A DNA stretch of 64,000 bases from an uncultured Oscillospiraceae bacterium (GCA_964490975.1 CAZBEQ010000015.1:1995-65994), one strand, 5' to 3'; shown: positions 38,422 to 56,676, counted from the first letter of the stretch. The notes: a model not told the origin generated them from the letters alone. Made by a program: numbers and translations.

Positions 38422-38455
38422 TTGACCATCCCCTTACTTTTCTAAGTGTTTTTTT

Positions 38456-38484: not shown

Positions 38485-38499
38485 TTGTTTTATTTGGCA

Positions 38500-38558
38500 T
38501 AAGGGGACATTCCTGACATTCCCGCTCCGGAGTCTCCTGCTGAAGGAGTGTCCCCTTA
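38500..38558. repeat. single copy of the AAGGGGACA...TGTCCCCTT palindromic element
   Basis: TAAGGGGACA (38500-38509) pairs with TGTCCCCTTA (38549-38558). Its ends match the units of the 8889-9074 array (AAGGGGACATTCYT ... GAAG.GTGTCCCCTTAC). Confidence 0.8.
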
Positions 38559-38570
38559 CGCCTATTCCCC

Positions 38571-39980
38571 TTATTTTAGCAGACCGTCGTAATATGTCTG
38601 GGCTCTGGCAAGCGTGTCAGTGTCCGGCACTACTTCTCCGTAACGTACCTGTTCATATATCTCAGTGAAGGGAGATAAGCTATCCTGCACTTCTACATTT
38701 TCCGAAGCCTTTACTACTATTTCCCGTACTGTATCGGTGTTTTCGGGTTTTATGCCACGCATTGGCAGCATTCCAAGGATATTACCGTACATATGCCTTA
38801 CTTTTTCTACCGGATCAGTTATCTGGTTCAGGCTTTTAGCCTTACATTTCTTCTTTTTTGCTCTTTTGGGCAAATCTCGCACATCAGGCAGAACTATCTC
38901 AGTCAAATCCACAAAATCAGACTCAGCATATGCTTCAGTACTGTTGTTAATTCCAAACATTTTTTTAACTATTCCAATAATTTTGGCAATAAACGAGGGT
39001 ATCCTTACAACAATAGCAAATATCAGCTTGTAAGCAAGATAAAGTATTACAAAATATTTCAGCACATTTGTTATCAGATTAAGGAATGGGAGCGGCCGAC
39101 TGCCGTAGCCATAGATTATGCTGCCTTGCGTCACAGAACCGCCGGTTGCCGTCTCCGTCAAAAGATTTTCAATAACCCACAGAAAAGCGCGAAAGACTAA
39201 ATCAATAATCTGCCTTGCTAAATTAAGAATATAGACAACTATTGTTTTCAGATTAAACAAAAGCAGCGTTATTACAAATACAAAGCATACCATCGTCAGA
39301 TTGAACCGTCTGAGGTTCTTTGGCAGTACGGATTTATCTATATGCTTTTTACTGAATATCTGATTTTCAATATCCTCTTGATTCTTAATAACAAGGAATG
39401 CAAATATAATGAAGTATGCAGCTATGAAGTACAGCGGGCGAAGATATGCCAGGCGATTGACAAGGTAAGGAAGCTCAAGGCATATTACCATGATAGACAT
39501 ACCTGCGAAAATGCTGGTACTGTTCATGATCCTAGCCGGCGAGAGCCTCGACTGCTTAAGAGGCACAATATAGGCAGTGGCCATCGGGATCAGTTCAAAT
39601 ATAACCCTCTCAATGCTAAACCTTCCATAAACGATTACTGTCACGGCTGCAGGGACGACGATCAGTCCCCATACAGCTAAAGAAGAGATAAACCTTTCAC
39701 TCTCCCGTATATTCAGCATGAAAGTTACAAATCTGACAAATTTAGTCGCTCCCATACGTTTTAGAAGGAGAATGTCCCTCGATATCAAAAAGCTTCCCAG
39801 TGCATGCGCAAAGCAGACGAATACTGCGTATAGTACAGCCGAGGCTGCGCCTCCATCGTCGTGGAATATAAAAGCACGCAGCATTATAATGCCTGCATAT
39901 ATAAACACATTTACTGCAAGTACTGACAAAATGCGCAGCATTATGTTCTCGATATTACTTTTTCCATTCTCAGTAGTCAT
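38571..39980 (-). CDS. multi-pass membrane protein with a DUF4129-like C-terminal domain
   Basis: About 9-10 TM segments. The C-terminal soluble tail (VEKVRHMYGNILGML...FTEIYEQVRYGEVVP) resembles the DUF4129 tail of TgpA-type proteins. No transglutaminase Cys-His-Asp core was recognised. Confidence 0.6.
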   Translation of the reverse strand: MTTENGKSNIENIMLRILSVLAVNVFIYAGIIMLRAFIFHDDGGAASAVLYAVFVCFAHALGSFLISRDILLLKRMGATKFVRFVTFMLNIRESERFISSLAVWGLIVVPAAVTVIVYGRFSIERVIFELIPMATAYIVPLKQSRLSPARIMNSTSIFAGMSIMVICLELPYLVNRLAYLRPLYFIAAYFIIFAFLVIKNQEDIENQIFSKKHIDKSVLPKNLRRFNLTMVCFVFVITLLLFNLKTIVVYILNLARQIIDLVFRAFLWVIENLLTETATGGSVTQGSIIYGYGSRPLPFLNLITNVLKYFVILYLAYKLIFAIVVRIPSFIAKIIGIVKKMFGINNSTEAYAESDFVDLTEIVLPDVRDLPKRAKKKKCKAKSLNQITDPVEKVRHMYGNILGMLPMRGIKPENTDTVREIVVKASENVEVQDSLSPFTEIYEQVRYGEVVPDTDTLARAQTYYDGLLK

Positions 39981-40008
39981 ATCCCCGCCCTCCCGGACCT
40001 CATGGGGT

Positions 40009-41157
40009 CTATACCCATTCTTCAGCCTTCAGCCAGTTGCCATCAGAGAGCATATATAGTTCTGCTGTTTCAGGCTTTGCTCCGTTCTCATATTCAGTAT
40101 CCAACAGGATGATGCACACGCTATTCCCCTCATCAGCCATACGGTCTGCCTGTGTGCACAAATCCTTGCTTAGATAAGCTGTTATGATAATTGTTTCAGA
40201 GTTTACTACATTCGGTGACATATCCTCAAGAAGGCTTTCAAAGTTCTTTATACTTTTCATCATAAGTCCCGCCAGTATTTTGAAAAGCTCCGTGATATGA
40301 TCCTTATCCGCAGCTTCACTTGTAATTATTGGCTGTTTCGCATCCTCGGAGGTACAGCCATTTGTGGCGAATACTACAGGTGTTCCCTCCCTCAGCGCTT
40401 TGTCGAAAAGCGTTGCAGCAACCTTTATGCCAAGCTCGGCGATACGTCTGTTTATTACATTTGTGAATTCATAGAGCTTTGATTGCATATTTAGTATGAC
40501 AGTTAGATTTTGCTGGGAAGTGAATTCATTTTTTCTTGCCATCAGCTTTCCGGTTCTTGCTGTAGCAGGCCAGTGGATCCGGTTCAGGGGATCGTTGAGC
40601 GTATGCTCCCGAATACCGGAAAACATAAATGGATCATCTATTATCCACCTGCTTACTACTTTATCGCTCTGAAGCAGATTTACAGGTACGAATAATTCAT
40701 CCAGATCTACTATTTCAGGGTAAACCATAAGTGTGATATTTACAGGCAATGCCTCTGAATTGTTACATAGATTAAGGAGATCGCCTCCGATCAGTGTAAC
40801 ATTTTCAGTATGAAAAACCCCTCTTTTGATACACTTCAGTTTCCATTTCCTTGTTGTCTTCTGATAGCTTTTCAATAGAAAGCTGCTCGTCACACGCCTG
40901 TCATCCTGGGCCAACACCGAACACATACCTGCAAAGTCCAGCCATCTGGAAGTATGTATATCTACCTTGAGCCAAGACACAGGCAACAATTTACCGTTAT
41001 AGACCGTCTCAACCAGATAGATCGTGTCACCCTCATGTGCTTCGGAGACACTGAATTTGCAGCTATAATCCAGCTTACTGAACGTATAGTTGCCAAATAT
41101 ATATGCCTGTAGCCATAGTACACCAACAAAGATCAGCAACAATGCGATGACATCCAT
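40009..41157 (-). CDS. DUF58 domain-containing protein
   Basis: N-terminal TM and the DUF58 hallmark FSGIREHTLNDPLNRIHWPATARTGKLMARKNEFTSQ. Confidence 0.8.
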   Translation of the reverse strand: MDVIALLLIFVGVLWLQAYIFGNYTFSKLDYSCKFSVSEAHEGDTIYLVETVYNGKLLPVSWLKVDIHTSRWLDFAGMCSVLAQDDRRVTSSFLLKSYQKTTRKWKLKCIKRGVFHTENVTLIGGDLLNLCNNSEALPVNITLMVYPEIVDLDELFVPVNLLQSDKVVSRWIIDDPFMFSGIREHTLNDPLNRIHWPATARTGKLMARKNEFTSQQNLTVILNMQSKLYEFTNVINRRIAELGIKVAATLFDKALREGTPVVFATNGCTSEDAKQPIITSEAADKDHITELFKILAGLMMKSIKNFESLLEDMSPNVVNSETIIITAYLSKDLCTQADRMADEGNSVCIILLDTEYENGAKPETAELYMLSDGNWLKAEEWV

Positions 41158-41166
41158 TTCAGCACC

Positions 41167-42144
41167 TCAAATCTCTTCAGTGGGTACACGGACTGTTCCT
41201 AAAATATCGCGGATAGTATTTTCAGCATTTTCCGAGCCTCCGGTAATCGCATGTCCTTTTATTATCAGACGATGAGCAAGTACGGGCACTGCCATTTCTT
41301 TGACGTCATCCGGAGTGATAAAATCACGTCCGTTCAATACTGCATTTACCTGGGCTGCCTTCATCAGCGCTATGCTGCCTCGCGGACTGACACCCAGAGA
41401 TATTCTATTGTCATGCCTTGTTGCTTCAATTATGTCTACGATATACTGCTGTGAAGCATCCGATGTCCTCACTGAAGTAACTGCATCCTGTGCATCAATA
41501 ACTTCTTCCTTTGAAGCTGCCGTCTTCAATGTCTCAAGAGGATCGGAGTCCCTAAAGCGTTTTAAAATTTCCATACCTTCATGAGGATCGGGATAGCCCA
41601 TCCTCAGGCGCATAAAAAATCTGTCAAGCTGTGCTTCAGGCAGCGGGAAAGTACCACGCGTCTCAACGGGATTCTGTGTGGCTATAACAAAGAAAGGCCT
41701 GTGAAGAAGCCTGGTTTCTCCATCCACAGTGACCTGCTTTTCCTCCATGCATTCCAAAAGGCTGGACTGAGTTCGCGGTGTTGCTCTGTTGATTTCATCA
41801 GCAAGAATTATATTAGTAAAAACCGGGCCTGACCTGAAGATGAATTCTCCGTTTTTCTGATCGAAGTAGTTGATCCCTGTTAAATCCGACGGCAATAGGT
41901 CTGGAGTGAACTGTATCCTTTTAAAGTCACATTTCAAAGACCTGGCCAGGCATTTTGCCAGCATCGTCTTGCCGACACCGGGAACATCCTCCAGCAGGAC
42001 ATGGCCTCCGCACAGAAGCGAAGTTAGTACCAGATCGATAGTTTCCTCCCTGCCGACCAAAACCCTGGATATATTATCCCTGATCAAACCGGCAAGCTTT
42101 TTTACATCAGACAGTTTCATAATATCCCCCTTGTTCAAATCCAT
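41167..42144 (-). CDS. MoxR family AAA+ ATPase
   Basis: GHVLLEDVPGVGKT (Walker A), ILADEINRA (Walker B), and the MoxR-typical PEAQLDRF. An alternative start is at 42120. Confidence 0.92.
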   Translation of the reverse strand: MDLNKGDIMKLSDVKKLAGLIRDNISRVLVGREETIDLVLTSLLCGGHVLLEDVPGVGKTMLAKCLARSLKCDFKRIQFTPDLLPSDLTGINYFDQKNGEFIFRSGPVFTNIILADEINRATPRTQSSLLECMEEKQVTVDGETRLLHRPFFVIATQNPVETRGTFPLPEAQLDRFFMRLRMGYPDPHEGMEILKRFRDSDPLETLKTAASKEEVIDAQDAVTSVRTSDASQQYIVDIIEATRHDNRISLGVSPRGSIALMKAAQVNAVLNGRDFITPDDVKEMAVPVLAHRLIIKGHAITGGSENAENTIRDILGTVRVPTEEI

Positions 42145-42151
42145 CGCCTCG

Positions 42152-42349
42152 TTATTGAACCTGATCGACTGTTTCAGCGCTCAATTGTCTTTCATTCCAG
42201 ATCCGGAGTTTTTCATTGTCCTCCTTGAACTGTGGGATACTCAACAATATGGATATTATAAGTATGACAGCAATAACAATGAGCTCCCTTATTATCGACG
42301 GACTCATATTTTTGATCCTGACACCTGCACGTTTGAATGCCAAAAACAT
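42152..42349 (-). CDS. small single-TM protein at the head of the MoxR operon
   Basis: MFLAFKRAGVRIKNMSPSIIRELIVIAVILIISILLSIPQF... The RBS AAAGGGG lies 7 nt upstream of the ATG at 42349. The stop is 8 nt before the MoxR start. Confidence 0.5.
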   Translation of the reverse strand: MFLAFKRAGVRIKNMSPSIIRELIVIAVILIISILLSIPQFKEDNEKLRIWNERQLSAETVDQVQ

Positions 42350-42450
42350 GAAAAAACCCCTTTTTACTAGCTTCATAGATTCATACTACCATCCTGTACA
42401 TACCAAAACAAGTAGAGAATTTTAATCTATAAAGTAGATAAAAAGAAGCT

Positions 42451-42531
42451 TGGGGTGCCAGGCACGAAAGATAGACACTTATTTGATATATATTTATCAA
42501 TAAGTGTCTATCTTTCGTGCCTGGCACCCCA
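42451..42531. repeat. long near-perfect palindrome (~33-36-bp stem) directly after the giant gene
   Basis: TGGGGTGCCAGGCACGAAAGATAGACACTTATT(T)GATA ... TATCAATAAGTGTCTATCTTTCGTGCCTGGCACCCCA. The only asymmetry is a single extra T. Confidence 0.95.
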
Positions 42532-42540
42532 ATCACCCAA

Positions 42541-45500
42541 TTAATGAGCGCCGATGACTCCGTCTACTCTTGTGCCGCCGCCCTGATAGGTCGTGACCCT
42601 TTCAGCGCCGGAATTGCCCACGATGTAGGTCGGCGTACCGCCGCCGTATGCGCCGTATGCTGCGGACCGATCCTCTGCTGAGAAGTAGGTGGCACAGCCG
42701 CCTGTGAGCGCAGCGGAGCTTGTCGAAAGCTGAGTCACCCATGTACCGTCAGACAGCTGTGTGAGCACCGGTTTCCCATTGTCGTAGCTGTTGAAAACGC
42801 TCTGCTGCGGTACCTCTTTACAACCAGTCAAAGTAAACCAGACATCGTAGATTTGTCCTGTCACACAGTTTATCAGCGTTGTATTAGCGTCAGTAGTTTC
42901 CTTGTCAACATCACCGTAGGATACAGAATTATCTGCCAGAATAGAATTGCAGAAGGTGACATTACTGCTTGTACCAGCAAGCGAACCTCTGTTATTTCCC
43001 GCCACAGTGACATTTACTGCGGTTGTACTGCCGTATACCGTATATATGCCGACTAAGTTGTTGGCTATTGTAGTATTATTCAGTATAACCTGGCCGGAAT
43101 CGTTATTTATACCTTTTGCTCCGGAGCCTGTGACCGAACAGTTTTCCATTGTGAGTATACCGCCGTTCGAACAGTATATCCCATCACCACCGTTATCTTT
43201 GATGGAGCAGTTCACCATTGTCATTGGAGCCTCGCAGAAAATGCCGCGGCCGCTGCCGGTTATCGTGCAGTTCCTAAGCTCAGCTACCGAGCCCCCCTGT
43301 GCCCTCAATGCATACTCAGAGGCATTGCACAAGGTCACATTATCAAGACTGATTTCCCCTGCGGTGTTGTTTATGCCCTCTTTGCCTCCAAAATCAACTG
43401 TCAGATAACTGATTGCACATGATGTGGTGGAGGAAAGTTCAAAGATCGTATTACTGGGATTGCTGTTCTGGAAATACAGTGTCCGCCCGCCACCGTCGAT
43501 ATTGACACTGGAAGGAAAAACAAGCACTTCTGTAACAATGATATCTCCATCATCCTGCGAAGCAAGTGCTGCCATCAGTTCTTCATATGTAGCAACCGAC
43601 GCTGATTCATCCCATCCCGCATATAGGGTTACATCCGAGTCATATACCCAATAACAGGTATCATCCGGATTTGGTGTGAGATAGGCAGAATTCGCGCCTG
43701 TGTAGTTAAAGCTCCCGTCGGCATTGATGAGCTTGGTGCCTCCCTGAACATACCAGCCGGTAAATGAAAAGCCTGTCCGGCTTGGATTTGTGATCGGCGG
43801 TAAAGCTGTCCCTTCATATGCAATTGTGACGGAAGGCGTGCCGGCAGTCGTGGCATCCTCAGCAGACAGTGTAATGGTATATGATTTTCTTTCAAACCGG
43901 GGTTCCACAAATATATCCCGTGGCGGCATTTTGGCCGGTATTGCCGGTTCCCATCCGGTAAAGGTAAAGCCTGCTTTCGTAGGAGCCTCGGGTGGTGTGA
44001 TGTCTGCTCCGGTCTGGAGCTGCTGTGGATTCGGTGCTCCGCTGCCGTCCGTATAAGTGAATGTATAAGAGTTAATGTCGTAATATAGATCCGCCGAGGC
44101 CGTACCGTCTGCCAAAACAATCAACTGAGGTATTTGTACACTAAGACGATAGCCTGAGTAGTATTGGCGCGGTACATATAGCGACAATTCTGCAGTGTAA
44201 TAATATGTTCTGGTGTCATAAAGAGTATACTCGCTGGAACCCGGAGCCGTTTGGAGATGGTGGCGCACCGTATACATCGCATCATCATTAAGCCGCCACT
44301 TCGCATAAAGAGTGTGCGGTTCGGAAATCCTTACTATACTGTCCGGCAGTACCTTTATTCCGTTTGCCCAACCATTCTCATCCTCGGAAAAATACCAGCC
44401 TGCAAACGTAAACCCTGTCATCACAGGTGTTTGCAATTCGCCATATTCAGACATATATGTAACGGTATCTACGTAACCATTCGGCAGGCCGCCTCCGTTG
44501 GTATCATATGTAATAGTGCAGCTATTGGGCCTCCAGACAGCAGTAGTTGAAAGCTCGTGTGCGGGCATGGTCATATTCTCCGATATCCCCTGCCACTCAC
44601 TGATATGCCAGTTATCTCTGAAAATAACCGGAGCGGAAATACATGCCCCGTATTTAATCATGGTCGTTACTAAGTAATTGGCTACTTCACCGGGATCGTC
44701 CCCGCTTTCATAATTATCAAACAGATCGCTTTCCGGTGTAAATCGTGCGTCAAAGGTCACCTCATAACTGTTGCGTGTATAGTAATAGTTCACTGTCCTG
44801 GTGCCATCCGGTGCTATGGTAACCGTTTGGAGAGGCGGTGCAGTAAAGCCCTCATATGATTTCACCGCAGGAGTGACGGTTGAATCTGTTGTTCCGGTAA
44901 ACAGCTGTCTGTCGGCAAGAGTATATTTTGAATCATTCAACAGGTCCTGCTTATGATGGCAAACCGTATAGCGGGTATTTGTCAACGGTTCCCATTTCGC
45001 ATAAAGGTTGAGGTAATATGCCGGCATGGTCGAAAAAGTATACTGCTGTGTAAATCCTTCGTCGGTATACCATCCTGCAAAGGTATATCCGGTCCTTGAA
45101 ACAGTTGGTTCTTGTATAATATCTCCGTAATAAAGGTGGAGATCCCTAACATAACTGCCACCGTTTTCATTGAAAAAGACCATGTAGCCGCCGTCATTGA
45201 CATCATCCCACTGCAGGTGATAGGTCTTGGAAATCGGCATGGATGAAAACGCCATTGGTCCGTGCCTCCAGGTAATCGTCATATCGCATTTGAGCATATG
45301 ATCATCCTTAGCAGTTGTCACAACGACCCGGTTCCCGTTTAGTGAAAAAGCATCATTTGAGAAGCTAAAATCGAAGTCGGATAACGGATAAGCCTTCTCG
45401 GTATATTCTCCCTCCCTCAGGTCAATATACTTCATGGTGATAAAGTCATCCGGAATAAGAAACTGCTTGTCACCATATTTCAGACGTATATCAGGCGTAT

Positions 45501-48500
45501 CCTTGTATACAAAGTCAACTACGGAGTATTGCGTACCTGCTGATAACAGAGGCCACTCATTCTCATAAAGTGTCCAGGTCGAGCCAATATTGCCGCTGAA
45601 CAGCTGTGCCACAAAATTAATTTCCAAATATACGCCAAGCTCAAAATATAGTGCGCCTGTGCTCATGTAAGAAGCAACACTGTTGACCTCCCGGTACTCA
45701 TAATAGAAGTAACCATAAAATTTTGCATATACTCCTGCCTCTGCAGTAAAACCTACGCTGTTGATGTCACAGCTGAACAGTCCTGCGGCCAGTTCAAGGC
45801 GGATCCCGGCACGCAAACCCAATTCGCCCATTATATAGAAGCGGAAGGTAAGCACCTCATCAGCAATATCCTGGGTATAGCTTCTGAAGTTTCTTGAGAA
45901 TATTCCCCCGTAAAAGGCATAGCATGTACCGCTGGAGTATTCAAAGCTGGTACCCAGTGCCACATTGATATATGCGCTGACAACGAAATGTCCGCTGAGC
46001 TTGATCTGTATTATACCAAAGAGTACCGGTATTCTCTGGTCGAACAATTTTTGTTCAAATAATTCTATCCAGTCGGAGCCTTGTTCAAGCATATCACAGT
46101 AAGTATCCAACAGTTCACTGACACCGGCTGCTATTTCGGCTGAATCGGTGCTTGTAAGCAGTGACTGTATTTCATCGGATATGTCAAGTGATAATCCGTC
46201 TTCCTGTGAATTTATGCTCGCTTCAAAGAACATACCCGTATAATTATAGACATTTGTGTAAGAGTAAAGGTTGTAATCCTTTATCCAGTATATAAAAAGC
46301 CAATGATCCCAGACAACACTGCCTGAGGCGTCGAGAGAAACGCTGATTTCCTGAACAAATGTGGCCGAACCACTTATGACAACTTCGTTATCACCGACTG
46401 CGACCGGCACGTCAAAGTTGACTGTGACCGCTGCACGCAAGCCATCTCTGCCTATTTTCTGTGTCTGTGAGCCAATCGACGTATCGACATCTATCCTGAT
46501 ATTATCCGTCGGGCCCAGTGTTGAAAGCGATCCTTCGGGAAGAGTTCCGAGAGCCGAAGTATAGTCTATCCTCTCTCCGGTAGTCTCTTCAAAGCCATCT
46601 GTTGCCATTGCTACAGCACTTAAATACACTGCTGCCTGTTCAGCAAAGCCGCTGTCTATAATGTGCTGCTCCAGGCTCGCCTCCAGCTGTGACACGTTTG
46701 CGCCCTCAAGCAGACTGTCACCGCTGACAGGAGTCTGAGCATAATAGCTCATCGCTGACTGCATTTCTTCCTGTGTAACAGAAGTGTAGCTTACAGTGAT
46801 TGAATTATCAGTACTGTTTGAAGTGATTCCGTTTATGACGGCATACCCGAGACAGTCGCCCAGACTCAGGTTTGCAAATTCGGGGTTTGTATAAAAGAAA
46901 ATGTAGTCACCAACATCGACAGTAGTGCTTGCATCCAGTCCAATGGAGGTAAAACCTGAAAAATCAAGCGCTTCGATATCCACAGTAAAGCTGGTACCTT
47001 CTGACGAGTAATTTCTCACCTGACTGGCAGAGCCCACATATATTGGCAAAGTGTCCGGCAGAGCAAGTACGTTTTCCGCAGCAGCCTGTGAATAGCTGAC
47101 TGTCGTACCGTTTACACCTGTAACCGAGACATAAGCTATATCTTCATTGATAAGAGCTTCAGAAGCGGCATCAGTGTCAGGAGGCGTATTGCCCGAATAT
47201 ATACATAACGTATCACCGGCGGTAAGTGTTTCATTTCCGCTGTATGTGAAGGTGCCTGTAATTGAGGTTATTTCCTCATCGCTTACAAGCGGAACATTCA
47301 GCGAATCAACTTCCTCGCCATTCTTAACTATGTTTGAAACTTTAACTGAGGGTATGTAAATGATCCCATCACTCAGCGGCAGGTCATCAGACTCTTCCTG
47401 CCTTATAGTAAAGGCGCAGGTCCGTATGTTTTGTTCCCTGTCGGAGTATGTCAGCTCATCATCGGTCAATATCAATGTATATGCAGCGCCTGCAGTGAAA
47501 CCTCCGTCTGCGGAGACGTTGAAGCTGCACTCTCCAGAGGATGCACCGCCGCTGTTGTCTCCCTGTCCTTCTGTGACCAGCAACACCTCCGGCGTACTGC
47601 CGTCCGCCCGCTCAATATCAATAGCGTTCTGCACTTCGCTCAGATTCATGGAAGCACTGGATATAATCGTAAAGCTGAGCGTCGTTGGCTGATCGGTCAG
47701 AGCAAACTGTTCGTCCTGCATACTGGTAACGCTCTCAAGCTCTGCATATTTAGCGTAAAGAGTTAGATTTGAGCTTACAACGGTCTCAGAGATAAAGCTT
47801 TCGGTAAACAATGGGTCCTTGTACCAGCCTAAAAAGACGAAACCAGTTCTTTGCGGTGTCGGAAGGTTTGAAATAGTGCCGCCGCTGGATACGATTTTTG
47901 CGTTTATAGTCAGTCCGCCATTGGTTTCAAAGCTGACGGTATAGTTCGATGCTGTACCGTTGGTGCCGTTGGTTCCATTATTGCCGCTATTGCCGCCTGT
48001 TCCAATGCCACCGCTATTGCCGTTGCTGTCTCCGGCGCCATTGTTTACGCCTCCGTCGGATAAAGAGACTGTTTGATGGACACGCATACTGACGGCAGCG
48101 CCTTCTGCTCTCTTTGCGCTGGATTTAGGATTAAAGCTGCCGTCCTCGTCCCCCTTCAGAATTCCTGCCCTCCAAAGGAGCATCACAGCTTCCCTTGCCC
48201 AATCGGAAACCTCGGATAGATCCTTCGGTTCCACCGTTGTTTCATCCAGGTCTCCAAGATCTATATTGCAGACAGTAAAGAAACGGACTGTAAAAACTGC
48301 CATCTGTTCTCTGTTAACAAGACCATTCGGGTCAAAATTTCCATTCCCAACACCCTGAGCAATTTGCATCCCAGCTGCCCAGGCAATGTAAGGAGCGTAA
48401 TACGCATCCGCAGTCACATCAGAAAATGTGTCACTGTAAGGATAATCGGAGGGCTTGATCCCGGCGATTCGCCCCAGAACAGTCACGTACATACCTCTTG

Positions 48501-48726
48501 TCATCGTGCCATCCGGCAAAAATGTATCTGTGCCGGTTCCGTTAAAAATGCCATTTTCAACGGCATACTTTACATACCCGTAATACCAGTCAGATTCGGA
48601 AATATCCTGAAACAGGCCGGATGGCGGGCTTGCAGCACCGCTTTGTGCTGCGGCGAATACATTGTACGGCATAACGGACAGAATCAGGCAAAGAATAAGT
48701 ATTATGCTGATAAGTCTACCTTTCAT
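42541..48726 (-). CDS. giant (2061 aa) S-layer-homology-anchored cell-surface protein with Listeria-Bacteroides repeats and a C-terminal parallel beta-helix
   Basis: The domain order is:
- signal peptide
- three SLH repeats (residues ~38-215)
- G/N-rich linker
- at least five GWY-type Listeria-Bacteroides repeats (for example RTGFVFLGWYKD, RTGYTFAGWYTD, MTGFTFAGWYFS)
- two YTV.HH MucBP/B-repeat-like modules
- C-terminal PbH1-like repeats (NCTITGSGRGIFC, NCSIKDNGGDGIYC, NCSVTGSGAKGINN). Confidence 0.9.
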   Translation of the reverse strand: MKGRLISIILILCLILSVMPYNVFAAAQSGAASPPSGLFQDISESDWYYGYVKYAVENGIFNGTGTDTFLPDGTMTRGMYVTVLGRIAGIKPSDYPYSDTFSDVTADAYYAPYIAWAAGMQIAQGVGNGNFDPNGLVNREQMAVFTVRFFTVCNIDLGDLDETTVEPKDLSEVSDWAREAVMLLWRAGILKGDEDGSFNPKSSAKRAEGAAVSMRVHQTVSLSDGGVNNGAGDSNGNSGGIGTGGNSGNNGTNGTNGTASNYTVSFETNGGLTINAKIVSSGGTISNLPTPQRTGFVFLGWYKDPLFTESFISETVVSSNLTLYAKYAELESVTSMQDEQFALTDQPTTLSFTIISSASMNLSEVQNAIDIERADGSTPEVLLVTEGQGDNSGGASSGECSFNVSADGGFTAGAAYTLILTDDELTYSDREQNIRTCAFTIRQEESDDLPLSDGIIYIPSVKVSNIVKNGEEVDSLNVPLVSDEEITSITGTFTYSGNETLTAGDTLCIYSGNTPPDTDAASEALINEDIAYVSVTGVNGTTVSYSQAAAENVLALPDTLPIYVGSASQVRNYSSEGTSFTVDIEALDFSGFTSIGLDASTTVDVGDYIFFYTNPEFANLSLGDCLGYAVINGITSNSTDNSITVSYTSVTQEEMQSAMSYYAQTPVSGDSLLEGANVSQLEASLEQHIIDSGFAEQAAVYLSAVAMATDGFEETTGERIDYTSALGTLPEGSLSTLGPTDNIRIDVDTSIGSQTQKIGRDGLRAAVTVNFDVPVAVGDNEVVISGSATFVQEISVSLDASGSVVWDHWLFIYWIKDYNLYSYTNVYNYTGMFFEASINSQEDGLSLDISDEIQSLLTSTDSAEIAAGVSELLDTYCDMLEQGSDWIELFEQKLFDQRIPVLFGIIQIKLSGHFVVSAYINVALGTSFEYSSGTCYAFYGGIFSRNFRSYTQDIADEVLTFRFYIMGELGLRAGIRLELAAGLFSCDINSVGFTAEAGVYAKFYGYFYYEYREVNSVASYMSTGALYFELGVYLEINFVAQLFSGNIGSTWTLYENEWPLLSAGTQYSVVDFVYKDTPDIRLKYGDKQFLIPDDFITMKYIDLREGEYTEKAYPLSDFDFSFSNDAFSLNGNRVVVTTAKDDHMLKCDMTITWRHGPMAFSSMPISKTYHLQWDDVNDGGYMVFFNENGGSYVRDLHLYYGDIIQEPTVSRTGYTFAGWYTDEGFTQQYTFSTMPAYYLNLYAKWEPLTNTRYTVCHHKQDLLNDSKYTLADRQLFTGTTDSTVTPAVKSYEGFTAPPLQTVTIAPDGTRTVNYYYTRNSYEVTFDARFTPESDLFDNYESGDDPGEVANYLVTTMIKYGACISAPVIFRDNWHISEWQGISENMTMPAHELSTTAVWRPNSCTITYDTNGGGLPNGYVDTVTYMSEYGELQTPVMTGFTFAGWYFSEDENGWANGIKVLPDSIVRISEPHTLYAKWRLNDDAMYTVRHHLQTAPGSSEYTLYDTRTYYYTAELSLYVPRQYYSGYRLSVQIPQLIVLADGTASADLYYDINSYTFTYTDGSGAPNPQQLQTGADITPPEAPTKAGFTFTGWEPAIPAKMPPRDIFVEPRFERKSYTITLSAEDATTAGTPSVTIAYEGTALPPITNPSRTGFSFTGWYVQGGTKLINADGSFNYTGANSAYLTPNPDDTCYWVYDSDVTLYAGWDESASVATYEELMAALASQDDGDIIVTEVLVFPSSVNIDGGGRTLYFQNSNPSNTIFELSSTTSCAISYLTVDFGGKEGINNTAGEISLDNVTLCNASEYALRAQGGSVAELRNCTITGSGRGIFCEAPMTMVNCSIKDNGGDGIYCSNGGILTMENCSVTGSGAKGINNDSGQVILNNTTIANNLVGIYTVYGSTTAVNVTVAGNNRGSLAGTSSNVTFCNSILADNSVSYGDVDKETTDANTTLINCVTGQIYDVWFTLTGCKEVPQQSVFNSYDNGKPVLTQLSDGTWVTQLSTSSAALTGGCATYFSAEDRSAAYGAYGGGTPTYIVGNSGAERVTTYQGGGTRVDGVIGAH

Positions 48727-48830
48727 TATCTCGCCTCTTTCCCTCGATTACATTCTTTCTATTACAGCCTGGAAGAGCTATTCTTAGGTGGATATTTCCA
48801 TTGCCTGCATAAATTTTCCATGATACAATT

Positions 48831-48861
48831 ATTGTACACCTCATGTTAACACGAGAGTCAA
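48831..48861 (-). promoter_or_regulatory. MerR-type promoter (19-bp spacer with dyad operator) driving the giant surface-protein gene
   Basis: Minus strand: TTGACT (48861-48856), spacer CTCGTGTTAACATGAGGTG (19 nt), TACAAT (48836-48831). The spacer holds the dyad CTCGTGTTAACATGAG, with 2 mismatches from a perfect palindrome. Confidence 0.7.
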
Positions 48862-48927
48862 GTACTGATTACAGATTCTTCGCGTTTTTTTGACAAATAT
48901 CAACCTTGAAAAGAGAGGTATCACTTC

Positions 48928-49737
48928 ATGCCAAAACCGGATGGACTGTTTTCCATAGGCGAGATTGCCGTAAGCAGCGGTCTGAGCATTAATGCCATAA
49001 GGTTCTACGAAACAAAGGCACTCATTAAACCTTCATCCACCTGTCCAAAATCCGGTTACCGCTATTACAGCCGGGAAAATCTTCTCCGTCTGCGGACAAT
49101 CATAGTGCTGAAGAATGCGGGGCTGTCCCTGCAGGAGATCGGAGATTATTTGGATGGAGAGAGATATACTGAGAAAAAGATTGAGGAGCTTACACTGCAG
49201 CGTGATTTTTTAAACCGCGCAATTGAGGACTTGATTATTCGAACGGTAAAGACCGGAGACTTGACAGTACACGAGATCGAGCTTCCGGAACGCTTCTGCC
49301 TCTGCCGTACAATACAGGCAAAAGACGCTGACCATGCACTTAGCGCCATTGGTGCATTTTATGAAGAGCTGATCCGCAAAGGGATCACGATCAGCTATAC
49401 CTGGCCGGAATTCTGCGAATACCCTGATTATGGGCTTTTAAATGGTAAATTTCCCATCAATGATTTCACCGTCACCGCATGTCTGCCGGTCGAAAATGAA
49501 GACGCACAGCCCGAAGCTGTGCGCTATCCTCCAGGAAGTGCAGTATCAGTTAATTACAGAGGTGATTATTTTGGGCTGTGGAAGGCATATGAGGCTCTGC
49601 ATCAATACATGGCAACCCACGGGTACGTTCCGTCCGGATATCCGCAGGAAATCTATATAGAAATTGGCTCTGACGGAGCGGTTCAGCCTGACAGTTTAGA
49701 TAACATTACCTGCGTGATTGTTCCAGTAAGAAAGTAA
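48928..49737 (+). CDS. MerR family transcriptional regulator with a GyrI-like effector-binding domain (BmrR-like)
   Basis: FSIGEIAVSSGLSINAIRFYETKALIKP...GYRYYSRENLLRLRTIIVLKNAGLSLQEI (MerR HTH), a coiled coil, and a GyrI-like C-terminus (VSVNYRGDYFGLWKAYEALHQYMATHGY). Confidence 0.88.
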   Translation: MPKPDGLFSIGEIAVSSGLSINAIRFYETKALIKPSSTCPKSGYRYYSRENLLRLRTIIVLKNAGLSLQEIGDYLDGERYTEKKIEELTLQRDFLNRAIEDLIIRTVKTGDLTVHEIELPERFCLCRTIQAKDADHALSAIGAFYEELIRKGITISYTWPEFCEYPDYGLLNGKFPINDFTVTACLPVENEDAQPEAVRYPPGSAVSVNYRGDYFGLWKAYEALHQYMATHGYVPSGYPQEIYIEIGSDGAVQPDSLDNITCVIVPVRK

Positions 49738-49869: not shown

Positions 49870-51063
49870 TTATGCTTTCATAGCTGCTGCAAAGCTCTCT
49901 CCGAACTCAGTGCATCTCTTAAGAGCACTTTCATCAGGCCGGTATTTTATGCCTAATGGTTCCAGCGGAATAGTCAATCCCGATTTTTCGAGCGATGCAC
50001 TGATCACCTTAGGCGATTCTCCACTCCAGCCATAGCTGCCGAAACCTGCACCGAGTTTTCCCTTGAATTTGTGTCCCTTGATTTCTTCCAGCAAGCCGGC
50101 TGTTGGGCGCAGAACAGTATTATTGACGGTACAGCTTCCAATGATTACGCCTTTTGCTTTAAATAATTCAGTCAGCAGGTCGCTCTGATCAGTTACCGCT
50201 ACATTGAACAGCTTGTACGCGGCTCCCTTCTTTCCAAGGCCTTCGGCGATTGCCTCTGCTATAGTCCTTGTGGCTTCGTACATAGTGTCATATATGATTA
50301 CGGCATAACCCTCATTATATTCCTGAGACCATTGATAATATTTTTCTATGATCTGCATCGGATCCTTTCGCCAGATTACACCATGGCTTGGAGCGATCAT
50401 ATCTATGTTAAGGTTCAAAGCCTTGATCTGCTCGATTTTTTTTGTTATCAGAGGGCTAAAGGGCGTCAGGATATTAGCATAATACTTGATAGCTTCCTGA
50501 TAAAGCTCACAATTATCCAACTCGTCATTATAGAATGACAAACCTGCATAGTGCTGCCCGAAAGCATCATTGGACAGTACTGTACCGGCTCCTTTAACAT
50601 AGGTGAGCATGCTGTCCGGCCAATGTATCATTTGCATCTCAACAAAAATAAGATCGTACTTACCAATATTAATTGAGTCACCGGTTTTTACGATTTGAAT
50701 ATTTAAATCATCACAGTGGAAATAGCTCTTTATAATATCTGCTCCATTTCTGGTACAATATATAGGTATATCCTTTGAGGGAAGTCTTTCGAGCAAATAA
50801 CCGAGACTGCCGCCATGATCCGGCTCACAGTGATTTATAATAATCATATCAATATTGCCAAGTCCAACATCCTTGTCCAGATTCCTGACGAAATCTTCCT
50901 TGTATGGATCCCATACAGTATCTACAAGAACTGTTTTCTGATCCTTTATTATGTATGAGTTATAGCTTGAGCCTCTGTGTGTAGACAGTTCATGTCCATG
51001 AAAGTGCCGCAGGCCCCAATCCTTAATACCTACCCAATATATACTGTCTTTTATTTCTACCAT
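49870..51063 (-). CDS. flavodiiron protein (FprA-type oxygen/NO reductase: metallo-beta-lactamase-like plus flavodoxin domains)
   Basis: Di-iron motif INHCEPDHGG, and a flavodoxin-like C-terminus (AVIIYDTMYEATRTIAEAI...GVIIGSCTVNN). Confidence 0.85.
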   Translation of the reverse strand: MVEIKDSIYWVGIKDWGLRHFHGHELSTHRGSSYNSYIIKDQKTVLVDTVWDPYKEDFVRNLDKDVGLGNIDMIIINHCEPDHGGSLGYLLERLPSKDIPIYCTRNGADIIKSYFHCDDLNIQIVKTGDSINIGKYDLIFVEMQMIHWPDSMLTYVKGAGTVLSNDAFGQHYAGLSFYNDELDNCELYQEAIKYYANILTPFSPLITKKIEQIKALNLNIDMIAPSHGVIWRKDPMQIIEKYYQWSQEYNEGYAVIIYDTMYEATRTIAEAIAEGLGKKGAAYKLFNVAVTDQSDLLTELFKAKGVIIGSCTVNNTVLRPTAGLLEEIKGHKFKGKLGAGFGSYGWSGESPKVISASLEKSGLTIPLEPLGIKYRPDESALKRCTEFGESFAAAMKA

Positions 51064-51222
51064 AACACCGACTCCTTTTGATTATCATTAAATTAGCAAC
51101 GAATCTATTATTACCCAAAATTATATCATATAAAACGTGAATTATCTTTTGCCACATACAAGCAAGTTATTGTCATTCTATAGTTGAGTGACTGTTTGAA
51201 GAATTTGGAAATGAAGAAATGA

Positions 51223-51505
51223 CAGGTTCAGATTCGGATTTGATACAAATTGTGATCGGACTACTCGTTTTTGCAATTATAGAACGTAATTGAGAGGCAT
51301 TATGAAGAATAAGCCATATTTTTAATATAAAAATGACCATTTCTTGGTGGAATTATGTTCTAAAGTTGAAAAAACGGGTAGTGCACTATCAAAATAACCA
51401 GGCAAAGAAGTTTCCACATGTATTTGTATATTAATTACAGTTAGCAGGCCACAACCAGGTTATATTAAAAGGACTTTCTACTCATCGCTGAAAGCCATAC
51501 GGAAG
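51223..51505 (+). repeat. copy B of the diverged ~280-nt intergenic repeat family
   Basis: See copy A. It contains the identical 23-mer at 51250-51272 and the conserved 3' block CTCATCGCTGAAAGCCATACGGAAG. Confidence 0.75.
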
Positions 51506-51530
51506 CTTATGTCTATCACAGTGCTTTTTA

Positions 51531-51573
51531 AACAACAAAAAAGGTGCAGTTTGCATAGCAAACCGCACCTTTT
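51531..51573 (-). terminator. rho-independent terminator of tuf (hairpin usable on both strands)
   Basis: Minus strand: AAAAGGTGCGGTTTGC TATG CAAACTGCACCTTTTTT. Confidence 0.85.
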
Positions 51574-51585
51574 AAAGTATCCTTA

Positions 51586-52788
51586 TTATTCGATTATACC
51601 AGTAACAGTACCGGAACCAACAGTTCTGCCACCTTCACGGATAGCGAACCTGAGTCCTTCTTCCATAGCTATAGGAGTGATGAGCTTAATAACCATTTCG
51701 ATATGGTCACCAGGCATGCACATCTCTGTACCTGCAGGAAGTTCAGCAATACCTGTAACGTCAGTGGTCCTGAAATAGAACTGGGGTCTGTAACCATTGA
51801 AGAAAGGAGTATGTCTTCCGCCTTCTTCCTTGGTCAGAACGTAAACCTGGCTCTTGAAATGAGTGTGGGGCTTGATGGATCCAGGCTTAGCCAGAACCTG
51901 TCCTCTTTCAACTTCATTTCTCTGGATACCTCTGAGCAGGCAGCCGATGTTATCGCCGGCAACAGCCTGATCAAGGAGCTTCCTGAACATTTCAACGCCG
52001 GTTACGACGGTCTTTCTCGGAGCATCCATTAAACCAACTATTTCAACTTCCTCGCCAACCTTTACCATACCTCTTTCAACCCTACCTGTAGCAACTGTGC
52101 CACGGCCGGTGATTGAGAATACGTCCTCGACAGGCATAATGAAAGGCTTGTCTGTAGGTCTTTCCGGTGAAGGAATGTAGCTGTCAACTTCCTTCATGAG
52201 GTTGAGTATCGGCAGATATTCAGGAGCATTAGGATCAGTGGAGGTGCTTTCGAGAGCAACCAGAGCGGATCCTCTTACTATTGGAATATTGTCACCGTCG
52301 AATTCGTAGGAGCTGAGGAGTTCCCTGAGTTCCATTTCAACGAGCTCGATGAGTTCTTCGTCATCAACCATGTCGCACTTGTTAAGGAATACTACGATGT
52401 AAGGAACGCCAACCTGACGAGCAAGGAGTATGTGCTCCCTGGTCTGTGGCATCGGGCCGTCTGCTGCGGAAACAACGAGTATAGCGCCGTCCATCTGAGC
52501 AGCACCGGTGATCATGTTCTTAACATAGTCAGCATGGCCGGGGCAGTCAACGTGAGCATAATGCCTGTTGTCTGTTTCATATTCAACGTGTGCGGTCGAG
52601 ATCGTGATTCCTCTTGCTTTTTCTTCAGGAGCCTTGTCGATCTGGTCGTATGCAGTATAGTTAGCCTTACCAGAGAATCCCAATACCTTTGTTATAGCTG
52701 CTGTCAATGAAGTCTTGCCGTGGTCAACGTGACCGATAGTTCCAATGTTAACGTGGGGTTTTGTTCTTTCAAATTTGGCCTTACCCAT
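51586..52788 (-). CDS. tuf: elongation factor Tu
   Basis: [33 protein letters not shown]...DCPGHADY...NKCD. Confidence 0.99.
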
Positions 52789-52915
52789 TTTTTAATTCTC
52801 CTCCCTTGTTCAGTTAAACACTGAATGATTATTAATAATTTTTTTATTTTATATGCTGCAAAACGTATCAACTATATTGATGTGATCCTGCAGCATATTG
52901 ACTGCTTTGAATCTT

Positions 52916-54979
52916 TTATTTAAGCACCGATTCCTGTATGCTCTTGGGGACTTCTTCATAGTGGCTGAACTGCATTGTGAACACGCCTCTGCCCTGTGTC
53001 CTTGAACGAAGCTCAGTAGCATATCCAAACATGTTCGCAAGCGGCACATGCGAAGTGATAACCTGTGCGCCTGACCTGTTTTCCATACCCTCGATCCTTC
53101 CACGGCGTGAATTGAGATCACCCATGACGTCTCCCATGTATGTTTCAGGTACAACCACGTCAACCCTCATTATTGGCTCAAGCAACACCGGATCAGCCTT
53201 GCGGCAGCCTTCCTTGAAGGCCATTGATCCTGCTATCTTGAATGCCATTTCTGAAGAATCGACCTCATGATACGATCCATCTACAAGAGTAGCTTTGATG
53301 TCAAGTACCTGATAGCCCCCCAGTATACCATTCTGCATGGCATCCTGTATACCTTCGTCGATAGGCGAGATATACTCCTTGGGAACTACTCCTCCAACGA
53401 TCTTGTTTACAAACGTATATCCGCTTCCGGGCTCCTGTGGCTCCAACTCAATAACGCAGTGGCCATACTGGCCTCTGCCACCTGACTGCCTTACGAATTT
53501 GCCTTCGGCCTTTACAGCCTTCCTTATGGTTTCCTTGTATGCAACCTGGGGTTGGCCTATATTAGCTTCTACCTTGAATTCTCTCATCATTCTGTCAACG
53601 ATGATCTCAAGATGCAGCTCGCCCATACCGGAGATAATTGTTTGCCCTGTTTCCGGATCTGTGTGGGCCTTGAATGTCGGGTCTTCTTCAGCAAGCTTAG
53701 CAAGAGCGGCTGACATCTTATCCTGTCCTGCCTTTGTCTTGGGTTCCACAGCGATGTGGATGACAGGTTCCGGGAATTCCATGGATTCCAATATAATTGG
53801 AGAATCCTCACTGCAAAGCGTATCGCCTGTGGTTGTATCCTTCAAGCCTACAATTGCGGCAATATCACCGGAATAAACAGAATCTATATCCTCTCTGTGG
53901 TTGGCATGCATCTGAAGGAGCCTGCCGACCCTTTCCCTCTTGTTCTTTGTAGAATTCAGCACATATGACCCCGAACTCAACTTTCCTGAATAAACTCTGA
54001 AAAAGCAAAGTTTTCCGACAAATGGATCAGCCATGATCTTGAACGCCAGCGCAGCGAAGGGTCCTTCGTCATTTGCAGGTCTGTCAAGCTCTGTCTCATC
54101 ATCGGGGGAAACACCTTTAATTGCAGGTACATCCAACGGAGAAGGCATATAATCAATAACTGCGTCCAGCAGCTTTTGTACACCCTTGTTCCTGTAGGAT
54201 GAACCACAGGTTACCGGTATCATATCAACGGCAATGGTTGCCTTTCTGATACCTGCACGTATTTCCTCTACGGTCAGTTCTTCACCTTCAAGGTATTTAT
54301 TCATCAAGTTCTCATCTTGTTCAGCAACAGCTTCGATTAAAATGTTACGATATTTTTCAACGATATCAACCATATCTTCCGGTATCGGTTCTTCATCCAA
54401 TACCGTTCCAAGGTCATCGGTGTAGTATATGGCCTTCATCGTCACCAGGTCGACTATACCCTTGTAATTATCTTCTTTGCCGATAGGTAGCTGAATTGGA
54501 ACAGCATTTGCCTTAAGTCTGTCCTTCATCATCTGGACACAATTAAAAAAATCTGCGCCCATAATATCCATTTTATTAACATATGCAATACGGGGAACAT
54601 TGTACTTGTCGGCCTGTCTCCAAACGGTTTCAGACTGAGGTTCCACCCCGCCCTTTGCACAGAAAAGTGTTACCGAACCATCGAGAACTCTCAGAGATCT
54701 TTCAACCTCGACCGTAAAGTCAACGTGCCCCGGCGTATCAATAATGTTGATCCTGTTACCCTTCCACTGTGCGGTAGTTGCAGCAGAGGTTATCGTGATG
54801 CCTCTTTCCTGCTCCTGCTCCATCCAGTCCATTGTTGCAGCGCCCTCATGAACTTCTCCCATCTTATGCAGTTTGCCTGTATAAAACAGAATACGCTCTG
54901 TTGTAGTTGTCTTACCAGCATCTATGTGAGCCATTATACCAATGTTTCTGGTATTTTCCAAACTAAATTGCCTGGGCAT
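52916..54979 (-). CDS. fusA: elongation factor G
   Basis: [24 protein letters not shown]...[10 protein letters not shown]...NKMD. Confidence 0.99.
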
Positions 54980-55085
54980 GATTGCCTCCTTTCTTCCTCG
55001 ATAAGTTCAAATTTTTGAAATCCTATTAATATAACTTCTGCAGATTTCTCACCTTTATACTGCAACCGGTGATACCGGGCAGCGA

Positions 55086-55556
55086 TTACCAGCGATAATG
55101 TGCAAAAGCCCTGTTTGCCTCTGCCATCTTGTGGGTGTCTTCTTTTTTCTTGTAAGCTCCACCGGCATTGTTGACAGCGTCAAGGATCTCTCCTGCAAGT
55201 CTTTCCTTCATTGTCTTTTCGCCTCTTGCGCGCGAATAATTGGTCAACCATCTCAGTCCTAAAGCCTGCCTTCTTTCAGGTCTGACTTCCATTGGAACCT
55301 GGTAGGTTGCACCGCCGACTCTTCTGGCTTTGACTTCCAGTACAGGCATTATGTTATTCATTGCCTGTTCAAAAACTTCAAGCGGATCCTTTCCTGTCTT
55401 CTCCTTTATAATGTCGAATGCATCATAACAAATTCTCTGAGCAACACCTTTTTTGCCGTCAAGCATAATGTTGTTGATCAGTTTTGTAACAACCTTGTCA
55501 TTATATATAGGATCCGGCAGAACATCCCTTTTGGGCGTATGTCCTTTTCTTGGCAC
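55086..55556 (-). CDS. rpsG: 30S ribosomal protein S7
   Basis: [28 protein letters not shown]... The start is a GTG 7 nt after AAGGAGG. Confidence 0.98.
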
Positions 55557-55750
55557 TTTACTTCCCTCCTTTTAGTAATGATAGGGGCAAGCTAACTCCC
55601 CTTCGAATGTTTACGAGGTACTCGGAACCCGTAGGTCCTCGTCAGTGCGTCAGTACATGTAATATATAAATCAATCAATATATAAATTAATTTGTTTTTA
55701 TCTATTCAACATACCTTGCACTTATTTTGGTCTGACCTCATCGGACGCTG

Positions 55751-56179
55751 TTATTTCTTAACTGCGCCAGCTTTAGGCCTCTTTGCACCATACTTGGAAC
55801 GGCCCTGCATTCTCTTTGCAACACCTGCTGTATCAAGGGTACCTCTGATAATGTGATACCTGACACCAGGGAGATCCTTAACCCTGCCGCCTCTGATAAG
55901 CACGACGCTGTGTTCCTGCAGATTGTGGCCTATTCCTGGGATGTAAGCACTGACTTCGATACCGTTTGTCAAACGCACCCTGGCAACCTTTCTCAAAGCT
56001 GAGTTAGGCTTCTTCGGTGTTTGCGTTCTTACAACAGTGCAAACTCCCCTCTTTTGCGGAGAATTAGTTTCAACAGGCTTCTTTTTCAGCGAGTTGAATC
56101 CTTTTTGCAGAGCCGGAGCAGTAGATTTGTATTCAACTGACTCTCTTCCCTTTCTGACCATCTGATTAAATGTTGGCAA
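55751..56179 (-). CDS. rpsL: 30S ribosomal protein S12
   Basis: (M)[11 protein letters not shown]...[19 protein letters not shown]. The TTG start at 56179 lies 5 nt after GGGAGGTG. The ORF-track start at 56197 is upstream of the RBS. Confidence 0.97.
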
Positions 56180-56239
56180 TTTTACACCTCCCTTCAAGTT
56201 TTGAATATTATTTATATCAAATTATTGATATATCGTTAT

Positions 56240-56521
56240 TTACCTCATTATACAAACTGCAGATGCGCCTACTTCAATGCCTACTGCCTTGCCTAACTGC
56301 TTCATTGTATCTACATACTCAATTTCTATTGAATTAGCGAGGCATTGCTCTTTAAGGTTCTCAGTGATTTTCACGTCAGCATCCTTTGCAATGAAAACTT
56401 TTATCGCGGTCTTGTTCTCCACCGCTTTCAAGGTTTGCTTTATTCCTATTGCTTTGTTGCTGCCTTTCAAAAGCTCAAGCACTTGTCGAGCACCTATCCC
56501 CTCTGTGACCTTTTTGTACAA
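56240..56521 (-). CDS. L7Ae-family ribosomal protein (YbxF/RplGB-like)
   Basis: GIKQTLKAVENKTAIKVFIAKDAD...MKQLGKAVGIEVGASAVCI matches the B. subtilis YbxF pattern, and the gene holds the same position between rpoC and rpsL. The GTG at 56482 (RBS AGGTG) is an equally plausible start. Confidence 0.85.
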   Translation of the reverse strand: MYKKVTEGIGARQVLELLKGSNKAIGIKQTLKAVENKTAIKVFIAKDADVKITENLKEQCLANSIEIEYVDTMKQLGKAVGIEVGASAVCIMR

Positions 56522-56586
56522 TTAAATCCCAAATGCGGTTAAAACCAACCTAATGGGCATAATACTCCCTGAATTCGCACTGAAAC

Positions 56587-56615
56587 ATTCTATCACCGCT
56601 TTGCAATGTTGTCAA
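56587..56615 (-). promoter_or_regulatory. sigma-A promoter (extended -10) internal to the rpoBC-str block
   Basis: Minus strand: TTGACA (56615-56610), 17-nt spacer ending in TGA, TAGAAT (56592-56587). Confidence 0.6.
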
Positions 56616-56676
56616 GATAAACGTAAAGACCGATGGTGCCGTTTATACAAACGACACCACCAGTCTCTCCCACTGA

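Follow-up and report, generated by a model that had tools for sequence, protein, structure and literature searches.

In the mer system, the promoters of the regulator and of the structural genes are divergent and overlapping, the operator dyad is located in a 19-bp spacer, and the regulator is subject to autoregulation. In Bacillus subtilis, the regulatory gene bmrR is located downstream of bmr. MlrA of Escherichia coli is a MerR-family regulator without a GyrI-like domain; it is linked to the surface and biofilm lifestyle and acts indirectly, on csgD. A survey of MerR-family promoters found spacers of 19–20 bp in 28 out of 28 (PMC7722741), and a review table of MerR regulators lists BmrR, BltR, Mta, and BrlR with efflux pumps only (PMC9909328); among the references of this review is a paper on the divergent mer promoters. 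Our search of the literature on MerR regulators with SLH/S-layer, GyrI-like, DUF4379, Cthe_2159, adhesin, and surface protein did not find the pairing presented below described; an SLH paper that surfaced as a mention of MerR (PMC3776848) contains the surname Merritt in its reference list.

The locus analysed here lies in a 64-kb stretch of DNA, referred to as the window, by which we mean that stretch at its full length. A MerR-family regulator gene and a giant surface-protein gene are encoded on opposite strands, and two predicted promoters, denoted P_slh (for the giant gene) and P_reg (for the regulator), are located between them. The features are as follows:

48928–49737, plus strand: regulator, 269 aa; MerR winged HTH, dimerisation helix, and GyrI-like effector domain (from Pfam, EcmrR alignment, and model)
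42541–48726, minus strand: giant target protein, 2061 aa (ORF call; Pfam, SLH three times, Flg_new five times, Beta_helix)
48856–48861, minus strand: −35 hexamer of P_slh, TTGACT (read from the window sequence)
48837–48855, minus strand: spacer of P_slh, CTCGTGTTAACATGAGGTG, 19 nt (read from the window sequence)
48831–48836, minus strand: −10 hexamer of P_slh, TACAAT (read from the window sequence)
48840–48855, no strand assigned: 16-bp candidate operator dyad, half-sites CTCGTGTT and AACATGAG, GTTAAC at the centre, 7 of 8 pairs complementary
48801–48829, plus strand: P_reg, TTGCCT (48801–48806), 17 nt, TG-n-TACAAT (promoter scan)
48821–48822 and 48824–48829, plus strand: TG and −10 hexamer, respectively, of the extended −10 of P_reg (promoter scan)
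48727–48824, minus strand: predicted 5′ UTR of the giant mRNA, about 98 nt, its start (an A at about 48824) placed from the position of the −10
42450–42532, minus strand: hairpin directly after the giant gene's stop codon, with a perfect 34-bp stem and a 15-nt loop, then a T-run

The divergent control region

The two ORFs, whose positions and lengths are those of the original prediction, are separated by a divergent intergenic region of 201 bp. Read on the minus strand at 48861–48831, this region contains TTGACT, 19 nt, and TACAAT, as had been reported; the whole of P_slh, from the −35 through the −10, spans 31 bp. The dyad takes up spacer positions 1–16 and is centred between positions 8 and 9. 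It had been described as a 16-bp dyad centred on GTTAAC with two mismatches: the dyad and its centre stand, the count does not, as the two mismatches are the two sides of a single G/T pair. A single substitution separates the window dyad from the perfect palindrome present in relatives. An over-long spacer with a dyad inside it, the architecture claimed for this promoter, was recovered throughout the alignment of 22 orthologous loci described below. With a spacer in the 19–20 bp range (a measure we took from PMC7722741 and PMC8113463), a pseudopalindrome inside that spacer, and a MerR-family gene adjacent to it, the intergenic region has the architecture of a MerR-type promoter, and its reading as a MerR-type divergent control region is supported by this arrangement of motifs.

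Taken singly, the parts of this arrangement are ordinary. Hexamers at the 19-nt spacing are unremarkable (5 in the window, 2.5 expected), and 16-bp dyads with 7/8 pairs are common (42 in the window, about 26 in shuffled sequences). The joint occurrence of hexamers, spacing, and dyad was seen a single time in the window and in none of 300 shuffled sequences, and the window has no second copy of the 25-nt motif. Further copies of the operator were sought in the window and in the 8-kb flanks of the loci, and none was found there.

On the other strand, the regulator has a predicted promoter of the canonical extended −10 type, P_reg. The −10 hexamers of P_reg and P_slh lie on opposite strands, 1 bp apart. 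Across loci the conserved pattern is TTG-(3+17 nt)-TG-n-TAnnnT, and TTG, TG, TA, and T (alignment columns 79–81, 60–61, 57–58, and 53) are invariant in 22 of 22. Transcription is predicted to start at about 48836 (plus strand) for the regulator and about 48824 (minus strand) for the giant gene, an arrangement in which the 5′ ends of the transcripts would overlap, by about 13 nt. Numbered from the predicted regulator start, the dyad extends from about +4 to +19, and the two polymerase footprints would overlap. By analogy with mer, this divergent layout would predict autoregulation.

Conservation among relatives

A scan of a genome collection returned 34 loci; the relatives all come from metagenomic assemblies and their carriers are uncultured. 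An ungapped alignment was made of 22 orthologous loci, the regulators of which are 50–69% identical. At all 22 loci, TTGACT is invariant, the spacer is exactly 19 nt, and positions T1, A2, and T6 of the −10 (TAnnnT) are retained. Wherever the upstream region of an orthologous locus is intact, the P_slh element is divergent from the regulator. Each locus has a single copy of the operator motif, which in every case is located in the divergent intergenic region; at L011 the promoter site is degenerate. Within the dyad columns, 86% of cells pair (G–T counted), as compared to 26–58% when the partner columns were slid. Symmetric compensatory changes were observed at alignment pairs 31–38 and 29–40, and three loci (L015, L016, and L021) carry the perfect palindrome CTCGTGTTAACACGAG. 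Conservation of the dyad and of the 19-bp spacing in related genomes had been put forward as a check on the original prediction; both were kept at 22 of 22 loci, L016 included.

The subfamily at 50% identity or above is narrow: clustered at the 50% level, it amounts to about three representatives of full length. Beyond it, TTGACT was also observed in the remote relatives L040, L041, and L043. In L040, whose regulator is 39% identical, the promoter reads TTGACT-19-TATGTT; its dyad is a different one, and the gene opposite encodes a DUF4379 protein. At 36% identity, another relative combines a 19-bp spacer that contains a perfect GTTAAC palindrome with a lipoprotein esterase as the gene opposite. 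A regulator with 34% identity is located opposite a secreted beta-helix protein (998 aa or more), and a 37%-identical relative adjoins a GerE-type gene.

The 56%-identical regulator of L046/L047 (2022–2834) is without the promoter motif and is located in a methylamine-type gene cluster. Its neighbours include two more MerR-family paralogs (one with a GyrI-like match), an aldehyde dehydrogenase, an amino-acid permease, and EutQ, together with a dimethylamine methyltransferase gene that is split as if by an in-frame pyrrolysine codon. This context may hint at cationic amine ligands.

The regulator

In comparisons with Pfam, only MerR HTH models matched the regulator (MerR_1, 8.9e-18); its C-terminal half, searched alone, gave no Pfam match even at E = 10. 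Because Pfam misses this half, the GyrI-like assignment was drawn from homologs, PDB sequence matches, and structure. The GyrI-like family PF06445 is present in most of 80 regulator homologs that are 50–69% identical. The best relative of solved structure found by phmmer is EcmrR (9e-10, residues 18–245, 23% identity), and in the PDB sequence search the C-terminal half also matched the EcmrR C-terminal domain and CTR107. An AF2 model made with an alignment of 20 homologs as input (pLDDT 82) has helices at residues 10–17, 21–29, 49–63, and 81–105. The top Foldseek matches of the full-length model are EcmrR, BmrR, and BrlR; its effector domain matched the EcmrR C-terminal domain with a TM of 0.76, CTR107 with 0.70, and also SAV2435 and CtaZ. 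The regulator had been described as a MerR HTH fused to a GyrI-like domain, and the PF06445 matches of its homologs, the full-length alignment to EcmrR, and the structural match of the effector domain all bear this out: it has the winged HTH and long antiparallel coiled-coil helix of the BmrR/EcmrR-like subfamily and, by way of its homologs and model, the GyrI-like C-terminal fold of that subfamily.

Two other identities were considered and rejected. NCBIfam gave sub-threshold HTH matches only (ZntR, CueR, MerR, SoxR, and a choline-utilisation activator), none of them an equivalog, and PADLOC, searched for known defence systems, gave a generic HTH match (mad1) and nothing else.

The DNA contacts of EcmrR (PMC8113463) were transferred through the sequence alignment of the two regulators. 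EcmrR H19, Y21, Y38, and R39 align with R25, Y27, Y44, and R45 of the regulator, and all four positions are invariant in the family. In the effector domain, by the same alignment at 23% identity, the invariant E241 is matched with E243 of EcmrR, the site-II glutamate that selects cations, and the site-I glutamate, E185, with L186 (PMC8113463). Aromatic pocket motifs are contributed by W159, F162, Y165, Y221, and Y243.

The effector domain also contains conserved cysteines (window 49297–49482): C124, C163, and C185 are invariant across the family and C126 is nearly so. Two of them share one face of a single beta-strand. They could be a redox or metal site.

Two classes of operator were distinguished: class A, CTnnAG[T/C]TAACTnnAG, at 8 loci, and class B, CTCGnGTTAAnnCGAG, at 14 loci including the window. 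When the first 110 residues of the regulator were searched, residue 22 was the only column to part the two classes perfectly, being Asp in class A and Asn in class B (window 48991–48993). It aligns with EcmrR K16, an alpha-2 residue that makes base-specific major-groove contacts (PMC8113463); in those remote relatives whose dyads differ, the residue is Arg or Ser. The division into classes is likely to reflect phylogeny, and the correlation is therefore not independent evidence per locus. The covariation is what would be expected if the regulator reads the GTTAAC-centred dyad, which is suggestive and not proof, and residue 22 is a candidate specificity determinant.

The target genes

The giant protein is composed, from N- to C-terminus, of a signal peptide, three SLH domains, Flg_new repeats, about 880 aa without a match, more Flg_new repeats, and a right-handed beta-helix. 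Its N-terminus, MKGRLISIILILCLILSVMPYNVFAAA, is followed by the three SLH domains within residues 39 to about 215; a signal peptide with three tandem SLH domains identifies it as an SLH-anchored surface protein. Residues from about 330 to 1210 (45097–47739, minus strand) gave no significant match to Pfam or to PDB sequences. This region of about 880 aa is conserved in the ortholog at L016.

The ATG of the giant gene, at 48726, is preceded by the ribosome-binding site AAGAGG. No Rfam family was found anywhere in the window, and the 5′ UTR is thus without a known riboswitch. The hairpin at 42450–42532 is a likely terminator and, because it and its T-run directly follow the stop codon, the giant gene is probably monocistronic; the MoxR/DUF58 operon downstream is separate from it. 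Between P_slh and the hairpin there is no transporter gene. A stem of 34 bp exceeds what is usual in intrinsic terminators, and the hairpin was missed by a simple terminator scan.

The surroundings of the module in the window (34190–42376 and 49870–63932) are core chromosome. On one flank are rpoB (partial, assigned by position only), rpoC, rpsG, fusA, tuf, and a flavodiiron-like ODP/flavodoxin protein; on the other are a MoxR AAA-DUF58-DUF4129 operon, a Lon protease, and a MASE3-SpoIIE phosphatase. No tRNA genes were found in the 64 kb.

To what extent the target is shared was determined with a tblastn census limited to the 19 loci whose upstream DNA extends for 2 kb or more. An SLH ORF was present on the divergent strand in 18 of the 19, the exception being L011, the locus with the degenerate promoter, and no transporter was found in the divergent target position at those loci. 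The usual feature of the GyrI subfamily, a multidrug efflux transporter as the regulated gene, is thus not seen here. That the promoter is aimed at the 2061-aa SLH protein with its beta-helix, and not at an efflux gene, was the central claim of the original prediction; it agrees both with the Pfam domains and with this census. SLH synteny is likewise kept at 50–58% regulator identity on three further contigs with unrelated surroundings. Large divergent proteins sampled at other loci carry SLH domains in 7 of 7 cases, joined to passenger domains that vary: Cthe_2159, Flg_new(_2), Glug, DUF6273, CBM_X2, and Cadherin-like.

Orthologous pairs of regulator and giant protein had been named as a further check. 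One is found at L016, where the giant ortholog, colinear and 58% identical over 1537 aa with an N-terminal SLH region, is located behind the same promoter. At this locus a gap of 205 nt precedes the giant gene, ahead of which an additional promoter is possible.

At 17 loci the first gene after the promoter encodes a DUF4379 treble-clef zinc-finger protein:

L032:7534–7833, minus strand: DUF4379 gene
L014:7535–7855, minus strand: DUF4379 gene
L019:7564–7863, minus strand: DUF4379 gene
L016:4921–5262, minus strand: DUF4379 gene
13 other loci: DUF4379 gene

These proteins are about 76–130 aa in length (85–105 aa in most loci) and have a basic C-terminal tail. The DUF4379 stop codon usually overlaps the SLH start codon by 4 nt, an arrangement of translational coupling. 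The gene is absent from the window, L008/L009, L013, and L026; a remnant of it was sought in the 5′ UTR of the window's giant gene, and none was found there.

Some loci show further features. In L035 and L036 (3797–7579, minus strand), which are the same locus in two samples, a Cthe_2159/Flg_new/SLH gene is broken into three ORFs with different breakpoints, and serine-recombinase fragments adjoin the broken gene; the breaks could be frameshift decay, variation, or assembly error. The two most divergent orthologous loci, L037:5201–12150 and L038:9073–16003, encode a 1012-aa FG-GAP protein downstream of the regulator. On that side they also have dlt-like genes (AMP-binding, PP-binding carrier, and MBOAT), another cell-envelope function beside the module.

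Proposed mechanism and alternatives

Since the relatives all come from metagenomic assemblies, we infer the transcription start, binding, and induction from the observed architecture, its conservation, the fold of the regulator, and the conserved class of target. On these grounds we consider it probable that P_slh is under classical MerR-type control, gated by an effector through distortion of the spacer, with the regulator limiting its own synthesis. The proposed order of events is as follows: a dimer of the regulator would bind the GTTAAC-centred dyad within the P_slh spacer. As long as no effector is present, this over-long 19-bp spacer would hold the −35 and −10 out of phase, and the giant SLH gene would be silent or repressed. 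Upon binding of a small molecule in the GyrI-like domain, the dimer would kink and under-twist the spacer, and sigma-A RNA polymerase could then use TTGACT/TACAAT, starting at about 48824 and producing a monocistronic giant mRNA. The regulator itself would be transcribed from P_reg, from a start at about 48836, a short distance ahead of the operator; its synthesis would be limited by the bound regulator and by RNA polymerase on P_slh, as in mer. For the ligand we tentatively suggest a small molecule that is hydrophobic and/or cationic.

It is unlikely that the regulator acts mainly as a repressor, either occluding a promoter TTAACA (48849–48844)-18-TATCAT (48825–48820) or only autoregulating P_reg, with the giant gene derepressed or constitutive. 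This hexamer pair is the best-scoring sigma-70-like match in the region (10/12 positions in a simple promoter scan), its −35 is the centre of the dyad, and the position of the dyad in the predicted regulator transcript is typical of a roadblock operator. However, the final T of TATCAT is kept in just 13 of the 22 loci, and the rest of this hexamer is already accounted for as the complement of the invariant TGnTA of P_reg; TTAACA-18-TATCAT was rejected as the primary promoter for its poor conservation among these loci. A pure repressor site, moreover, would have no need of TTGACT, the exact 19-nt spacing, and TAnnnT, which are retained at all 22 loci and in relatives with 34–39% identity, and the characterised MerR-family members with spacers of 19–20 bp are activators (PMC7722741, PMC8113463).

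Under MerR-type activation, the signal might still differ from a drug-like compound: the effector-domain cysteines, three invariant and one nearly so, could sense redox state or metal, or the signal could be a protein partner such as the DUF4379 protein, whose gene heads the target operon at 17 loci, in translational coupling with the SLH gene. We regard this as quite unlikely. The effector fold is that of the GyrI-like small-molecule binders EcmrR, CTR107, SAV2435, and CtaZ, the invariant E241 aligns with the site-II glutamate of EcmrR, and the pocket motifs are rich in aromatic residues. As to the DUF4379 protein, the window is without its gene, yet keeps the whole module.

A chance likeness, or coincidental neighbours with the real targets (e.g. 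efflux pumps) elsewhere, would fit the ordinary frequencies of the hexamer spacing and of 7/8-pair dyads, and additional distant targets are compatible with these incomplete genomes, but such an explanation is effectively refuted because promoter, dyad, and SLH synteny are conserved over 22 loci in different Clostridia assemblies with varying neighbourhoods, with a single operator per locus and a joint motif absent from all shuffles, while regulator identities of 50–69% are at odds with a single recently spread mobile element.

Effector-gated activation of the giant gene thus remains the preferred reading. It combines a familiar mechanism with a new conserved class of output, an SLH surface protein, and in most relatives with an uncharacterised partner gene; the conserved motifs and synteny support this combination. 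Over 20 related uncultured Clostridia share the pairing, which is seen in a looser form in relatives with 34–39% identity. We can go further and propose, with confidence evenly divided for and against, that these loci represent an undescribed, conserved cassette of anaerobic Clostridia for the small-molecule-gated display of surface proteins: a GyrI-type MerR sensor, a GTTAAC 19-bp-spacer promoter, usually a DUF4379 gene, and a highly variable surface protein that is SLH-anchored or secreted and beta-helix/adhesin-like. If so, the sensing logic of multidrug resistance would have been re-used for remodelling of the cell surface, the cue might be, for example, a substrate-derived or toxic cationic or aromatic compound, and the zinc-finger protein would be an unrecognised co-factor. 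Confirmation would widen the output repertoire of MerR-type activation, provide a rare testable handle on the control of surface-protein display in anaerobic Firmicutes, and give DUF4379 a functional context. Being compact, with one regulator, one predicted specificity residue, and a promoter of 31 bp, the module would lend itself to reconstruction in a model host and possibly to use as a sensor part.

Comparison with known systems

The likeness to the bmr promoter that had been drawn in the original prediction agrees with published data. The sequence of the Pbmr primer is ...TTGACTCTCCCC (PMC7722741), and P_slh resembles Pbmr in being a sigma-A type of promoter with a 19-bp spacer, a start of TTGACT-CTC..., and a dyad in the spacer (PMC7722741). 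BmrR of B. subtilis, like the regulator described here, combines a MerR HTH, a coiled coil, and a GyrI-like effector domain, and Foldseek E-values against BmrR structures ranged from 5e-12 to 1.6e-10. The differences are as follows: identity in the structural alignment is about 16–19%, the operator here is GTTAAC-centred, the regulator here is divergent from its target with overlapping promoters, and the target is a 2061-aa SLH-anchored protein, whereas that of BmrR is an MFS efflux pump. The register of the P_slh dyad is about half a base pair apart from that in the BmrR-derived spacer (PMC8113463).

EcmrR of E. coli (PDB 6XL5, 6WL5) is the best match of the regulator in both sequence and structure. 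The residues that contact the DNA backbone and minor groove are conserved between the two; the major-groove residue differs (K16 in EcmrR, N22 here, D22 in class A), as does the position of the site-I glutamate E185, which is Leu here in an alignment at 23% identity. EcmrR was studied on a synthetic promoter derived from that of BmrR.

BrlR of Pseudomonas aeruginosa shares the GyrI-like domain and is tied to a surface and biofilm lifestyle, but it activates efflux pumps (PMC9909328) and does not directly drive a cell-wall-anchored protein. Nor does MlrA drive such a protein directly, which sets it apart from the regulator proposed here.

In layout, the closest parallel is to MerR and the mer operator-promoter (Tn21/Tn501), with divergent, overlapping promoters and a dyad in a 19-bp spacer whose centre falls after position 8, a register that we take the merT promoter to share with P_slh. 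The systems part at either end of the signal path: where MerR has a Cys-based metal site, the effector domain here is GyrI-like, and where the output of mer is detoxification, the output here is a surface protein.
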